From the NCBI GenBank assembly GCA_001773725.1, contig MEXP01000009.1, positions 5,073 through 69,072 on the forward strand: a stretch of DNA of 64,000 nt, written 5' to 3'. Of the stretch, positions 13,374 through 18,138 are shown piece by piece; position 1 is the first letter of the stretch, and each line of letters begins with the position of its first letter. The position numbers and the translations under genes were made by a program. Source of the DNA: Candidatus Amesbacteria bacterium RIFCSPLOWO2_01_FULL_49_25 (GTDB lineage: Bacteria > Patescibacteriota > Microgenomatia > CAZETR01 > Amesbacteraceae). The notes under the pieces were generated by a model. It saw nothing but the letters and a program-made list of their open reading frames with translations, did not search any database and was not told where the DNA came from.

Positions 13374-14877
13374 GACAGTGGTCGGATTCTATTGAGGCGG
13401 ATCCGTTGGTGTTGGGTATGGGAATGTATTTAAACTGACGATCGGGAAAACGGGCAATGAATTGCTGGGCAAGTGTGGTTCGAGTATAAAATCTATCCCA
13501 ACATTCTTTAAATAGATTCTGCTCTTCTATAAGACTGTAATCAATGAGGTCAGGCCGCTTGGCTAATTCATTGGTAAATAATCCCCCTGCCCAGACCCGA
13601 CTCCAGAGGCGGGCGAAATCAACAGCTTCTCCAATTTGCCACATATCGGCTTTTTGAGGAGGGTTTTGCATTACGTAACTACTAAGATTTTTCGCCCATG
13701 AAAGAGTACGATTAAGTGAGGAACCGTACTGAATAAAACTGGTTACAGCCAATGCCAAAAGGAGAGAAACCGGTAATACTTTGACAATTCGAGGTAAATA
13801 CGAAAAATAATAAGAGATTGAAAATATGATCATGAGATAGTTTGCCAGTTGGTAATGGCTGAGCGGATATTTAGAGAATAGTAGAGTACCCGCAATGCCT
13901 GAGAATAATAGTGAAACAAATTCGGGAACAAGTTTACGTTTAAGTGCGGAAACAAAAATAGCGGAAATTACTCCGAAAGTGATAATGTACCCAGCTGCAA
14001 ATTCCCTGTTTATTAAGGTTTTGATTGAATCAAGGTATAGGGGCATATCAAAAAAGGTGTTTTTTCCTCCTCCATGAATTTCGGAGAAAGAAGCTAGTCT
14101 TAACGACCAACTGAATAACGCAAAATACTGGTTATGAATCGGCCAGGTTGCAATGAGGAAGCCGCACAGCGCCAAAAATGATGATATAAGCGTAAGAAAC
14201 GCTCGTTTGGGAAATGAGTACTTGACGTTTAACAATGGCAAGCTGCACGAGAAAGCGACGAGAAACAAGTTGGTAAACTTATTGCCGATAAGAATTCCAG
14301 ATATGAGGGGAAGTAATAACATTAAAAACAGGGGCTTGTTTTGCCGATAGTAAGCAAAAAGAAAGAAAAATGCAGAGATGATAAAGAAGGAAGTTGTTTC
14401 CGGAACGATAGCTGATCCGAAATAAAGAACTGGACTGTAGACGATGATGGCCAGCCATGTAAAAATTGCGCTAATTAATGACTTGGTTATTTTTAAAACC
14501 GAATAAACATAAATAAAGACAGCAGTTGATAGCAATACGCTTTGAAAAAGCCTAAGGTAGACCAGGACAAAACTGTAGTGAATGAATGACCAAGTGACGA
14601 AGGTTGTTTGAGCGAATAATTTAAGGTAAATCCGTAAAGGCCAGAGGAAAAAAGCAAGGAGGCGGATAGTCGGTGTACCGGGATGATCTACGTAATGAAT
14701 TAGGCCAGAGGAAATGTACGAAATTGCGTTCGCAGTATAAACTACATCCGGGTCGAGTAAAAAAACTGCCGATTCACTACCGGCGCGTGTAAGATAGTAT
14801 GTAGAAAAGGCTCCGGTAATGGCGGAAATTACGATAACGACAAAGAGTTTATTTCTTTTTTGCCACCACATACTCAA
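13360..14877 (-). CDS. Large polytopic membrane protein of unknown function with C-terminal soluble domain (possible GT-C transferase/polymerase)
   Basis: ~11 hydrophobic segments, 'HYVDHPGTP' loop after TM1, C-terminal ~130 aa hydrophilic; no confident family. Confidence 0.4.
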   Translation of the reverse strand: MSMWWQKRNKLFVVIVISAITGAFSTYYLTRAGSESAVFLLDPDVVYTANAISYISSGLIHYVDHPGTPTIRLLAFFLWPLRIYLKLFAQTTFVTWSFIHYSFVLVYLRLFQSVLLSTAVFIYVYSVLKITKSLISAIFTWLAIIVYSPVLYFGSAIVPETTSFFIISAFFFLFAYYRQNKPLFLMLLLPLISGILIGNKFTNLFLVAFSCSLPLLNVKYSFPKRAFLTLISSFLALCGFLIATWPIHNQYFALFSWSLRLASFSEIHGGGKNTFFDMPLYLDSIKTLINREFAAGYIITFGVISAIFVSALKRKLVPEFVSLLFSGIAGTLLFSKYPLSHYQLANYLMIIFSISYYFSYLPRIVKVLPVSLLLALAVTSFIQYGSSLNRTLSWAKNLSSYVMQNPPQKADMWQIGEAVDFARLWSRVWAGGLFTNELAKRPDLIDYSLIEEQNLFKECWDRFYTRTTLAQQFIARFPDRQFKYIPIPNTNGSASIESDHCLTKP

Positions 14878-15493
14878 TGAACGACCAACTCTTGAGGTAT
14901 TTTTCTAAATGTCTGGCCGAGAAATTACTTATTATTGGTAAATAAACGGGGCAAAGCAGACAATAATCGTGGCAGGTGATCTGTAAGCCCGAATTGAGGA
15001 GGAGGTGCTGCAATTGAGCGAAGTTAATTCGGTTGTGAGGGCCCTCAGGCATCTTGAGACGTAATTTCTCAGCCAACATCAAAATCGGCTCCCATTTGGG
15101 GTTGGCCATAGTGCAAATAAAAACCGAGTGTTTGGTCATAAATTTGGTTATTTTATTTAATATAGCAAGCGGATCAGTCAGATGTTCAATAACATCACTC
15201 ATGAATATGTATTCAAATTTTTCCCCAGGATAATGCGTGGAAAATCGCAAGTAGGGGTACTTGGTTTTGGCTATCGTCAGCATATGTGAACTGATATCAA
15301 TTCCATACCCGTATTTGGGATGCAAATATGCCAACAGATCACCGGTGCCACAGCCGACTTCCAGCACCCGCCTGTGAAAAGGGATGAGGGAGGACAATAA
15401 TGATTTGAGAGAAGAGTAATAGTACCAATTACGACGTTTGTATGAGTCGTAGTCTGCGGCAATACGATTGAAGTGAAATTTAATTGCGTCCAT
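14849..15493 (-). CDS. Class I SAM-dependent methyltransferase
   Basis: Motif I '[15 protein letters not shown]', 'GYGIDIS', '[10 protein letters not shown]'; start trimmed to MDAIKF to avoid 86-bp overlap with fcl. Confidence 0.8.
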
Positions 15494-16403
15494 CGATATT
15501 CTTAAGATACCATTCGATGGTTTTTTGTAAACCTGTTTTGAAGTTGGTGGTGGCTTGAAACCCAAACAGCTTTCTGGCTTTGGAGGTGTCTAGCATTCGG
15601 CGAGGCTGACCGTCGGGTTTTGACTTGTCCCAAATTATCTGACCCTTGAAACCTACTATGTTTTTAATAAGATCGGCCAGATCTTTAATGCTGATTTCGA
15701 ACCCGGCGCCGATATTAACCGGCTCCAGAACATTTAGTTTTTCCGCTGATAAGACAATGGCCTGGGCGGCATCATCGACGTAAAAAAACTCCCGAGTGGC
15801 TTTCCCTGTTCCCCAGACTACTACTTTTTTCGCTCCTGCTTTTTTGGCATCCACAAATTTTTTGATTAGCGCGGGAACGACATGGGAAACTTTGGGGTCA
15901 AAATGATCCCCCGGGCCGTATAAATTAACCGGCAATAAATAGACCGAGTTGAGACCATATTGCTGTTTATAGGCCTGGGCCATGACTAAAAGGGCTTTCT
16001 TGGCAATACCATAGGGAGCGTTGGTTTCTTCGGGATAGCCATTCCACAATTCAGACTCTTTAAAAGGGATGGGTGTGTATTTGGGATAGGAACAGATCGT
16101 GCCGACGATGACGACTTTTTTGACGGAATTGACGCGGCAAGCTTCTATCAGATTAATCCCCATCAGCAAATTGTCATAAAAGAGTGAGCCGGGGTTACTT
16201 TGATTGTAGCCAATGCCGCCAACGTTCCCGGCTAGATGGATTACCATGTCAATTTTGCGAGTAACTTTTAGGCAATTATTAATGGACTTTAAATCGAATT
16301 GTTTTTGACGTGGGACAATTGTTTTGTACCCCTTCTGACGAAACAGACTGACTACATGACTGCCCAAGAAGCCTGCACCCCCGGTTACGAGAATTTTTTT
16401 CAT
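15480..16403 (-). CDS. fcl: GDP-L-fucose synthase (GDP-4-keto-6-deoxy-D-mannose 3,5-epimerase/4-reductase)
   Basis: '[15 protein letters not shown]', '[10 protein letters not shown]', '[28 protein letters not shown]', '[17 protein letters not shown]', '[12 protein letters not shown]' align motif-for-motif with characterised Fcl. Confidence 0.9.
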
Positions 16404-17158
16404 TTGAGAAAATTATAAACTAATTTGACTATAAATGAACCAATTGAGTGGGCAAAGATTATTAACACGTTGTGGGAATATTTTTGAATAATTGACAAAT
16501 CTTCAGAAAATTGACGATGAAAAGTTGTGGTACCGAATGACGATGGATGAACCCGAAAAACGGCGAGAGTTTGAGGAATTCTGGCTGGTAGTGAATATCT
16601 CAGACATCGCAGCCAGTAGTCATAGTCGAATGCTCCTTTGTACTTGGGGTTAAATCTGCCAACTTTTTTAACTAATTTCTTTGATAAGAATACCGACGGC
16701 TGATTAATAGTGTTGAAGATTTTTAGGGCGAATGGATATTTGTGGACCGGCCACAGCCATTTTAGGAAAAAAGTCCATTTTAGTTTGGGGTCAGTGACAT
16801 TACAGTTGCCATAAAGCCAGAGAGTTTCCGGGTGAGTTTGGAAATATTCGGCTACCGCTTGTAACGATCCGGGAAGATAATAATCGTCGGAATTAATATA
16901 AGCAATGATGTCCCCTGCGGCTTTGGATAAACCCTCGTTTATGGCGCTCACTTGGCCGTTGTCTTTGTGAGATCTCCAATTGATAAATTTGTACTGGCTT
17001 GCGTATTTTTGAATAATTTTTACTGTATTATCGGTAGAACCTCCATCGAGAATAAAATATTCCAGATTCGGATAGTATTGATCCATAATCGAACTAATTG
17101 TCTGTTCGATAAACTGTCCCTGATTATATGAAGGGGTGATGATCGAAATGCGCGGCAT
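16400..17158 (-). CDS. GT2 family glycosyltransferase
   Basis: '[21 protein letters not shown]', '[10 protein letters not shown]', 'INSDDYY'. Confidence 0.85.
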
Positions 17159-17160
17159 GG

Positions 17161-18138
17161 TCAGACTCGGGCGCGCCAGTAGTTGAGAGTGTCCAGAAGA
17201 GTTTGCTCGAATTTAATCCGAGGTTTCCAGCCTGTCTTGGACCGAAATTTGGAGCTGTCCCCGACCAACAAAGGAACGTCGGATGGGCGGATCCGGCTTT
17301 GATCTGCCACGATTTTTATTTTTTGGACACGACTATACTCCAGTAATTTGTCCAGCACGTTTTTTATCACCCAGGCTTTGTCTGAGCTGATGTTGTAAAC
17401 GTCCCCCGGGGTACATTTCAGGACTGATAGATAATATCCTCTCACCATGTCTCTGACGTCAGTAAAATCCCTTTGGGCATTTAAGTTTCCCACCATAATT
17501 CGGGAAGACTGGAGTTTTTTCTCTATTAAGGCGATTTGTTTGGCAAAGTTTGATGCGACAAAGACGTCTCCGCGTCGGGGACCTTCGTGATTAAAACCAC
17601 GAGTGCGAACAATTTTTAATCCATAACTTTTAAAGTACTGGTATCCCATAAAGTCCATGGCGGCTTTAGAAACGGCATAGGGAGAGAGGGGCCGCAGGGG
17701 ATTTGTTTCCTTGATGGGTGTCTCATGAGGCAAAACCAGTCCGTATTCTTCACTGGAGCAAGCTATTTGAATGACAGGGTCAATTTGGGCTGTTCTAACA
17801 GCCTCGAATAAATTGCATGAACCTATCACATTAGTTTCCAGTGTGGCTGACGGTGATGTCCAAGACGCTGGAACGTAACTTTGGCCGGCCAAGTGAAAAA
17901 TATAAGTTGGACGAATAAACATCATCACGTCCTGAATAGACCTGAGGTCCAACAAGTCTGCTTCAACCAGATGGATTCGCCCATTTAAGTGTTCTATGTG
18001 TTCTGAGCGGGACCGCCACCTGACGATGCCGTAGACTTCATATCCTTCTTTGAGAAGCAATTCAGCAAGGTGTGATCCGGCGAAGCCTGTTATTCCGGTA
18101 ATCAGGGTTTTCTTATGGTCTTTTTTTTGTTTTGGCAT
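17161..18138 (-). CDS. gmd: GDP-mannose 4,6-dehydratase
   Basis: 'KTLITGITGFAGSHLAELLLKEGYEVYGI', 'SPYAVSKAAMDF', 'GFNHEGPRRGDVFV', 'VGNLNAQRDFTDVRD', 'RPSDVPLLVGDSSKFRSKTGWKP' match Gmd hallmark blocks. Confidence 0.85.
   Translation of the reverse strand: MPKQKKDHKKTLITGITGFAGSHLAELLLKEGYEVYGIVRWRSRSEHIEHLNGRIHLVEADLLDLRSIQDVMMFIRPTYIFHLAGQSYVPASWTSPSATLETNVIGSCNLFEAVRTAQIDPVIQIACSSEEYGLVLPHETPIKETNPLRPLSPYAVSKAAMDFMGYQYFKSYGLKIVRTRGFNHEGPRRGDVFVASNFAKQIALIEKKLQSSRIMVGNLNAQRDFTDVRDMVRGYYLSVLKCTPGDVYNISSDKAWVIKNVLDKLLEYSRVQKIKIVADQSRIRPSDVPLLVGDSSKFRSKTGWKPRIKFEQTLLDTLNYWRARV

Follow-up and report, generated by a model that had tools for sequence, protein, structure and literature searches.

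A putative GDP-L-fucose supply pair and an associated methyltransferase in a glycan gene cluster of Candidatus Amesbacteria

The subject of this analysis is a 64-kb stretch of DNA (hereafter, the window) from Candidatus Amesbacteria, an uncultured groundwater member of the Microgenomates within the Candidate Phyla Radiation (CPR) that is represented by a metagenome-assembled genome (MAG). The window carries a group of four genes whose products are predicted to supply GDP-L-fucose and possibly to methylate a sugar. These genes encode a short-chain dehydrogenase/reductase (SDR) that we call SDR1 (17161-18138), a family 2 glycosyltransferase (GT2; 16400-17158), the GDP-L-fucose synthase Fcl (15480-16403), and a class I S-adenosylmethionine (SAM) methyltransferase, MT_14849 (14849-15493). 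An earlier reading made from the sequence only had described the four as Gmd, GT2, Fcl, and methyltransferase genes, and all four open reading frames are real, lie on the minus strand, and have the coordinates given there. SDR1 matches a protein from the MAG Candidatus Amesbacteria bacterium RIFCSPLOWO2_01_FULL_49_25 with 100% identity. We consider it fairly probable that SDR1 and Fcl form a GDP-L-fucose supply pair, and that the most likely role of MT_14849 is O-methylation of the sugar that a neighboring pair of glycosyltransferases uses, for which fucose is the leading candidate. This neighboring pair consists of GT2p, a DPM1/AglJ-like polyprenyl-phosphate glycosyltransferase encoded convergently on the plus strand (12219-13373), and a membrane glycosyltransferase of GT-C fold encoded on the minus strand (13360-14877).

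Fcl (3,5-epimerase/4-reductase; Pfam Epimerase, 188 bits) is a protein of 307 aa that aligns end to end with the Escherichia coli GDP-4-keto-6-deoxymannose epimerase/reductase (GMER) at 222 bits and 37% identity. In GDP-fucose synthase, the reductase triad is formed by Ser107, Tyr136, and Lys140, and the epimerase dyad by Cys109 and His179 (PMC7949155). In the alignment to the structure 1bws, residues T102/Y131/K135 of the window protein correspond to S107/Y136/K140 of the E. coli enzyme, and C104/H174 correspond to C109/H179. The sequence-only reading had named absence of the catalytic triad as the observation that would overturn its identification of Fcl, and the identification stands because these catalytic residues are present. 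The product of the Fcl step is most likely GDP-L-fucose, as far as homology can tell. ColC, the colitose enzyme, was also tried for this Fcl-like gene and was rejected, as there is no ColD-type aminotransferase in the window.

The partner enzyme requires more caution. The claim that Gmd is recognizable motif for motif does not hold for SDR1, which has GITGFAGSHL where Gmd has GITGQDGSYL, and which falls outside the curated Gmd equivalog because its score on the NCBIfam model gmd (TIGR01472), 189.7 bits, is below the cut-off of 415. SDR1 (Pfam GDP_Man_Dehyd, 275 bits) is better described as a non-canonical GDP-sugar 4,6-dehydratase, that is, a putative functional Gmd with an Rmd-like overall sequence. 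Its key residues, S128-S129-E130 (in CSSEEYG), Y154/K158 (in SPYAVSK), and N183-H-E-G-P-R188-R189-G190, align with those of the Arabidopsis thaliana Gmd MUR1 and of 7us5, the Campylobacter jejuni GDP-heptose 4,6-dehydratase, and SDR1 has counterparts to the extended-SDR catalytic set of Gmd (Thr/Ser133, Ser134, Glu135, Tyr157, and Lys161 in E. coli numbering). A motif table and a tree indicate that the FNH(E/T)GPRRG motif and the R(W)RSR..I.H(L) loop are common to the SDR1 family, MUR1, and 7us5. In the window these two elements, the NHE(S)PRRG loop and the Arg-rich loop after strand 2, read FNHEGPRRGDVF and VRWRSRSEHIEHL, and both were found in 14 of the 14 family members examined. The two solved structures of Rmd (GDP-6-deoxy-D-lyxo-4-hexulose reductase), 2pk3 from A. 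thermoaerophilus and 6x3b from Pseudomonas aeruginosa, have GPGQ and no Arg-rich loop, as do 11 Rmd-like genes that adjoin SDR1 homologues, whereas SDR1 lacks the Rmd-type GPGQ and short strand-2 loop and carries GPRRG and the long loop instead.

SDR1 thus shares features with both known enzymes. With canonical Gmds (E. coli 1db3 and A. thaliana MUR1, 1n7g) it has in common the extended SDR fold, the Ser/Thr-Ser-Glu and YxxxK residues, NHE(S/G)PRRG, the Arg-rich loop, and a position upstream of Fcl; it differs from them in its nucleotide-binding loop, which reads GFAG and not GQDG, and in being about 20-50 residues shorter. With the Rmds it shares the highest similarity, the length class, and the C-terminal motifs VGNL.A.RDFTDVRD and RPSDVP. 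Members of the family are 60-86% identical and are spread over CPR, Acidobacteriota/Thermoanaerobaculia, Eisenbacteria, Krumholzibacteriia, and a few archaea, and by sequence the clade is a cross-phylum one between Gmd and Rmd, closer to Rmd than to Gmd. Its annotation is conflicting: NCBI names the family GDP-mannose 4,6-dehydratase, and the Joint Genome Institute (JGI) names it GDP-4-dehydro-6-deoxy-D-mannose reductase. Literature searches found no characterized member of the clade and nothing specific on fucose or Gmd in CPR. LegB, a GDP-GlcNAc 4,6-dehydratase (173 bits), was another candidate for SDR1 and was rejected, since legionaminic-acid genes are absent.

Gene context was examined in 80 genome loci with SDR1 homologues, which are referred to below, together with other relatives, by L numbers. 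The gene directly downstream of SDR1 is a DPM1-like GT2 in 29 loci, an Rmd-like SDR in about 27, a UXS-like SDR in 12, and Fcl in one. When one of the Rmd-like neighbors was compared with the PDB, it matched 2pk3 at 202 bits and 6x3b at 146 bits, and dehydratases at no more than 82 bits. A canonical Gmd within 10 kb of SDR1 was found in none of the 80 loci. In the syntenic locus L089, a canonical Gmd (GITGQDGSYL) occupies the slot of SDR1, the order being a GacI-like GT2, a DUF2304 gene, Gmd, Fcl, and a fusion of methyltransferase and GT2. In L001 and L081, Fcl comes directly after SDR1 and is 69% and 82% identical, respectively, to the Fcl of the window. SDR1 is therefore partnered in many places with an enzyme expected to consume GDP-4-keto-6-deoxymannose: Fcl takes this part in the window and in L001, L081, and L082/83, and the Rmd-like gene does so in the approximately 27 loci mentioned above. 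We consider that SDR1 most likely acts as a 4,6-dehydratase, because the GPRRG and Arg-rich loop motifs, the downstream Rmd-like genes, and the Gmd in its slot in L089 all point in this direction.

Two side observations concern these loci. In the Gottesmanbacteria loci L010 and L033 (5900-13700), the gene order is RmlA, RmlB, RmlD, Ugd, SDR1, a GT2 in the form of a DPM1-GtrA fusion, and an ArnT-like GT-C; RmlC and a GDP-sugar reductase are not adjacent, and SDR1 directly precedes the polyprenyl-phosphate sugar synthase. Many of the loci from L003 to L058, with gene content of the Microgenomates type and 63-67% SDR1 identity, have been deposited as third-party annotation (TPA) MAGs of "uncultured Gammaproteobacteria", which is probably a mislabelled taxonomy.

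Several results weigh against a GDP-L-fucose supply pair. In addition to the low TIGR01472 score, the best solved relative of SDR1 is the Rmd 2pk3 (264 bits, 43% identity), and the second best is 7us5 (220 bits, 40% identity), which ranks above all Gmds; true Gmd structures reach 140-162 bits and 32-36% identity (36% to MUR1). Fcl matches the NCBIfam model GDPFucSynFcl (NF047922) over its full length (301.9 bits, E 6e-90), but as a divergent member that stays below the cut-off of 500. When every long open reading frame of the window was scanned with Pfam, no ManB/ManC, nucleotidyltransferase, or phosphomannomutase was detected, so that the source of GDP-mannose is unsupported locally, and no second SDR or dehydratase besides SDR1 and Fcl.

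These results leave room for other readings of the pair. If SDR1 were an Rmd, it would make GDP-D-rhamnose beside Fcl, and the intermediate would come from a Gmd encoded elsewhere. The similarity to 2pk3, the distance from the gmd cut-off, and the name Rmd that JGI gives to several family members agree with this; the dehydratase-type GPRRG and Arg-rich loop in place of GPGQ, the separate Rmd-like gene directly after SDR1 in about a third of the loci, the lack of a canonical Gmd within 10 kb in all of them, and the replacement of SDR1 by a canonical Gmd in L089 speak against it, and we regard it as quite improbable. SDR1 could also be bifunctional, a dehydratase with a weak 4-reductase activity, in which case GDP-D-rhamnose would be formed in addition or instead, and the module would give D-rhamnose and L-fucose. 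Rmd activity has been reported for three characterized Gmds (bioRxiv 10.1101/854612), SDR1 is unusually Rmd-like, and in L084/85 and in the 29 loci (mostly Microgenomates) a GT2 or DPM1-like GT2 directly follows SDR1 with no GDP-sugar reductase nearby. On the other hand, the dedicated Rmd-like gene right after SDR1 in loci of the Acidobacteriota type argues against efficient self-reduction, and the Fcl of the window is available to consume the keto intermediate; such bifunctionality is improbable in our view.

It is also conceivable, at a very low probability, that the pair acts on GDP-heptose, with SDR1 as GDP-D-glycero-D-manno-heptose 4,6-dehydratase and the Fcl-like enzyme as C4 reductase, giving a 6-deoxyheptose as in Campylobacter capsules. 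The rank of 7us5 fits this reading, as does a gene pair in L082 (20086-20975; also in L083): some 9 kb downstream of SDR1, a SIS_2 gene of the GmhA-like kind precedes one of the transaldolase family, a hint of heptose metabolism. This pair has no counterpart in the window, where the Pfam scans found no GmhA, HddA, HddC, or cupin epimerase. The Fcl of the window keeps the C/H dyad, whereas DdahC (T/H) and MlghC (Y/R), two heptose reductases of Campylobacter, have neither this dyad nor epimerase activity (PMC7949155). Moreover, the full-length match of the window Fcl to E. coli GMER at 222 bits contrasts with matches of 140-173 bits over only the N-terminal approximately 190 residues for 7anh, 8ewu, 7cxt, 7m13, 7anc, and 6aqy, PDB chains deposited as GDP-L-fucose synthase (the label is taken from the deposition).

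The supply pair stands among tightly coupled glycosyltransferase genes. The stop codon of SDR1 is followed by two bases and then by the ATG of GT2; the ATGA overlap between GT2 and fcl, described in the sequence-only reading, can be read directly in the sequence; the ATG of MT_14849 at 15493 overlaps the 3' end of fcl by 14 nt; and the start of the GT-C gene at 13360-14877 overlaps the 3' end of MT_14849. On the upstream side, a gene for a small DUF2304 membrane protein of the GacJ/Rv3632 family (18113-18466, minus strand; Pfam DUF2304, 59 bits) overlaps the start of SDR1 by 26 nt.

The GT2 at 16400-17158 (Pfam Glycos_transf_2, 105 bits) is a soluble enzyme and a candidate fucosyltransferase, and its orthologues come after SDR1 in L082-L085. 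In the PDB it matches K4CP at 71.6 bits and WrtF at 57.6 bits over residues 4-226. WrtF is a GDP-Fuc alpha-1,4-fucosyltransferase of the GT2 family from Rhizobium tropici (PDB 9OMH; PMC12595478). Like the window enzyme, it is a single-domain soluble GT2 of similar size, and among solved structures it gives the best match over the full length; however, the similarity is weak, which leaves the window enzyme a candidate only.

Upstream of SDR1 lies a possible route to a lipid carrier. In NCBIfam, the GT2 at 18448-19143 (minus strand) best matches PpgS, with a full-length score of 98.9 bits that is below the equivalog threshold of 370, and the DUF2304 gene follows it directly, which is the arrangement of a GacI/GacJ-type synthase. 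A GT2 with a DUF2304 partner, as in GacI/GacJ and PpgS/Rv3632, is the type of a polyprenyl-monophosphate sugar synthase (bioRxiv 10.1101/180810). Next to these genes, at 19118-20224 on the minus strand, is a PIG-V-like GT-C membrane protein of the mannosyltransferase type (Pfam Mannosyl_trans2, 32.6 bits), which is kept upstream of the cassette in relatives.

Downstream of fcl, the 505-aa protein encoded at 13360-14877 has no Pfam match. Its AlphaFold2 (AF2) model has a predicted local distance difference test score (pLDDT) of 83 and a predicted template modeling score (pTM) of 0.86, and only GT-C enzymes match it in Foldseek (ALG12, DPY19, ArnT, PMT, and PglB; E 6e-7 to 7e-4). The acidic motif of the first external loop, D40-P41-D42, is invariant. 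According to this predicted structure, the protein is a GT-C fold glycosyltransferase, translationally coupled to MT_14849. GT2p (Glycos_transf_2, 76 bits; AglJ, E 3e-25) has an N-terminal domain that resembles a truncated methyltransferase without a SAM loop and that is related by homology (E 8e-8) to the C-terminal half of MT_14849. Upstream, the plus-strand reading frame of GT2p remains open as far as 11985, within a minus-strand GT2 gene (11120-12178), and no methyltransferase motif I occurs in this added part, so that the SAM-binding half, kept in L089 and L081, was apparently lost from the GT2p of the window.

Much of this arrangement is conserved. In several Microgenomates loci, a cassette is found that consists of a GT-C, a GacI/GacJ-like pair, the fucose genes (dehydratase, GT2, and Fcl), the methyltransferase with a GT-C, and the convergent GT2p. 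In L082/83, whose SDR1 is 78% identical, the order is GT4, PIG-V-like GT-C, GT2, DUF2304, SDR1, GT2, and Fcl, and then a 501-aa membrane protein, the methyltransferase, and a convergent GT2. In L086, L167, and L169, where SDR1 is not nearby, a GT4 or GT-C is followed by Fcl (61-63% identical), GT2, DUF2304, and GT2, and then by a membrane protein, the methyltransferase (52-60% identical), and a convergent GT2. In L084/85, SDR1 is retained together with GT2 and the convergent GT2, and in the Woesebacteria loci L166 and L168 another SDR stands with the methyltransferase and the convergent GT2. A further observation in L082 (12636-14060 and 17289-18978; also in L083) concerns genes that are absent from the window, two for radical-SAM proteins of the B12-binding type and one for a small ferredoxin, which lie between Fcl and the GT-C/methyltransferase pair and beside GT2p; the sugar might accordingly undergo C-methylation or a different radical modification.

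MT_14849 (Methyltransf_23, 63 bits) is a SAM methyltransferase of class I fold whose motif I is intact (AF2 pLDDT 91), and its family is specific to Microgenomates, with 52-65% identity across the group. Its neighbors are generic both in sequence (UbiG, BioC, and UbiE at E ~1e-7, and the putative methyltransferase 3cc8) and in Foldseek (CmoM, ChlM, AtmM, and others), and the latter include methyltransferases of tRNA, porphyrin, quinone, biotin, and antibiotics. The sequence-only reading had looked to the grouping of the methyltransferases for a decision; MT_14849 grouped neither with known sugar O-methyltransferases nor with small-molecule methyltransferases. In a metagenome scan for relatives of MT_14849, the matches in 80 loci were mostly distant generic class I methyltransferases, and only L086-L089 were informative. 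All eight of the loci with an MT_14849 orthologue have GT2p adjoining it, usually tail to tail and usually with the GT-C membrane protein as well, whereas Fcl is present in about five of the eight (L082/83 counted once).

Two observations give moderate support, at the level of gene order, to a link between MT_14849 and fucose: in L089 a full methyltransferase domain is fused to a GT2 of the GT2p type directly after Gmd-Fcl, and L084/85 lack Fcl and the methyltransferase together. Other results weigh against this link. By sequence or fold, no connection of MT_14849 to known sugar O-methyltransferases was seen; its orthologues occur without Fcl in L166, L168, L087, and L088; and Fcl occurs without an orthologue of it in L001. 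For fucose itself as the methyl acceptor of MT_14849, we would speak of a possibility and not of a probability. The product proposed earlier, an O-methylated fucose, is thus retained in its GDP-fucose part, with the caveat on SDR1, and the step from nearby methyltransferases to a methylated fucose is not demonstrated, as the constant partner of MT_14849 is GT2p and not Fcl.

Three further methyltransferase genes on the minus strand had been brought into the same argument. The one at 10321-11127, FkbM_10321, does belong to the FkbM family and exceeds the thresholds of TIGR01444 (112.8 bits vs 37.7), PF05050 (77.4 vs 22.7), and PF05575, RfbT (37.3 vs 27.9). The RfbT family comprises O-antigen terminal-sugar methylases, RfbT itself being the methylase of the terminal perosamine of Vibrio cholerae O1, and because FkbM_10321 passes the RfbT threshold, a role as a sugar O-methylase is reasonable. 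In the relatives examined it is not kept beside fcl, its best matches are 29% identical, and a PDB sequence search found no relative. MT_6293 (6293-7048) is a class I SAM methyltransferase (matches to Methyltransf_25/23/11/12), with only weak NCBIfam matches (KsgA, OlsG, and similar) and no synteny with fcl in relatives. The gene at 8875-9558 fits the proposal less well. It has no Pfam or NCBIfam match at E<=0.01 (only Methyltransf_11 at E 0.057), and nothing was found when it was compared with the MT family profile by hhalign; after iteration of a hidden Markov model (HMM) over the fetched loci it reaches bona fide class I methyltransferases, and in the alignment its SAM loop is degenerate, with LDVGLSP instead of GxGxG. 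It is better called a divergent protein of class I methyltransferase fold.

The main competitor to fucose as the methylated sugar is a residue of another kind. The methyltransferases may modify a non-reducing terminal cap, which stops elongation of the chain and is recognized by the C-terminal domain of Wzt, or the donor sugar on polyprenyl phosphate, unrelated to fucose. We take this as a serious contender that falls somewhat short of being probable. It agrees with the RfbT match of FkbM_10321, with a Wzm/Wzt pair with a weak Wzt_C domain at the end of the operon, with the loci in which MT_14849 orthologues accompany GT2p in the absence of Fcl, and with the lack of synteny of FkbM_10321 and MT_6293 with fcl, while the co-occurrence of the methyltransferase and Fcl in five loci, their joint loss in L084/85, and the fusion in L089 favor a connection with fucose. 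The Wzm/Wzt pair spans 112-2392 on the minus strand: Wzm (1328-2392; ABC2_membrane, 66 bits) and Wzt (112-1335; ABC_tran, 78 bits), the latter with matches to TagH and galactan Wzt and with a C-terminal extension whose Wzt_C score of 26.1 bits is below the cut-off of 30.4. Wzt_C domains are readers of terminal caps in O-antigen export, and the weak Wzt_C-like domain could relate to the methyltransferases of the cluster.

Returning to the preferred reading, a GDP-L-fucose supply pair with a methyltransferase acting on the sugar of GT2p and its GT-C partner, the pathway might run as follows. Judging from motifs and gene context, SDR1 would dehydrate GDP-mannose to GDP-4-keto-6-deoxymannose, which Fcl, given its homology and intact catalytic set, would epimerize and reduce to GDP-L-fucose. 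The soluble GT2 (16400-17158) may then add fucose to a surface glycan at the cytoplasmic face, a speculative step for which WrtF is a precedent; alternatively, and equally as speculation, a DPM1/GacI-type GT2 may load fucose onto polyprenyl phosphate and GT-C enzymes may deliver it outside the membrane. Finally, the cytoplasmic MT_14849 might use SAM to O-methylate the sugar handled by the GT2p/GT-C pair, which is also speculative. A bolder version, which we consider unlikely, is that the cassette makes polyprenyl-phosphate-linked L-fucose, possibly O-methylated, which is loaded by GT2p or by the GacI/GacJ-like pair and moved outside by GT-C, and that the SDR1 clade is a new cross-phylum type of functional Gmd. 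We know of no polyprenyl-phosphate fucose donor that has been described.

The module is part of a very large glycan cluster, the genes of the window being nearly all on the minus strand and its GC content about 44%. According to the Pfam scans, the cluster has at least 15 membrane proteins of the GT-C/PMT_2 type (~500 aa), approximately 20 GT2 genes, and two GT4 genes, together with a Wzx-like flippase, an AsnB-type amidotransferase, a hexapeptide acyltransferase, and the Wzm/Wzt ABC exporter at the 3' end. The GT-C/PMT_2-type genes (~480-560 aa) form long consecutive runs (21986-32649, 39286-40782, and 45464-62071) with small GT2 genes between them, and several have no Pfam match at all. The AsnB-type glutamine amidotransferase is encoded at 32652-34472 (Asn_synthase, 250 bits) within the cluster; in polysaccharides, enzymes of this type commonly convert uronic acids to their amides. 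At 36320-37228, among glycosyltransferase genes, lies the gene for a UPF0020/RMKL-like methyltransferase (95 bits; a family of the RNA m2G type), which is probably an unrelated housekeeping gene.

Among known systems, the closest logic, which is also that of the sequence-only reading, is found in the rhizobial Nod-factor set of noeL (Gmd), nolK (Fcl type), nodZ (fucosyltransferase), and noeI (methyl-fucose methyltransferase), which leads to 2-O-methylfucose (PMC6275314). Both there and in the window, one cluster combines enzymes of the Gmd and Fcl types with a transferase and a SAM methyltransferase. However, the dehydratase NoeL is a canonical Gmd, and the transferase NodZ, a GT-B enzyme (GT23), acts on chitooligosaccharide, whereas the window has a dehydratase of another clade and GT2 and GT-C transferases. 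A second likeness is to GacI/GacJ/GacL of Streptococcus pyogenes and PpgS/Rv3632/Rv3779 of Mycobacterium tuberculosis, where a GT2 gene is followed by a DUF2304 gene with GT-C genes alongside, and where the polyprenyl-monophosphate sugar made by the GT2 and its DUF2304 partner is moved outside by GT-C. The known systems of this type carry GlcNAc or GalNAc from UDP-sugars; in contrast, the window has GDP-6-deoxyhexose genes wedged in, plus a methyltransferase and GT2p.

As a module that supplies a deoxyhexose within a glycan cluster, the system is largely an ordinary pathway. Two aspects are modestly novel, namely the dehydratase clade intermediate between Gmd and Rmd and the conserved coupling of the methyltransferase, GT2, and GT-C, and beyond what follows the rest is routine annotation of a glycan cluster. 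For a widespread and highly conserved SDR clade, the analysis exposes a conflict of names between NCBI (Gmd) and JGI (Rmd), in which motifs and context favor a dehydratase. CPR bacteria live attached to host cells, and to our knowledge there is almost no experimental knowledge of their surface sugars. A credible GDP-fucose route within a conserved cassette of lipid-carrier and GT-C genes would therefore offer concrete CPR enzymes to test.

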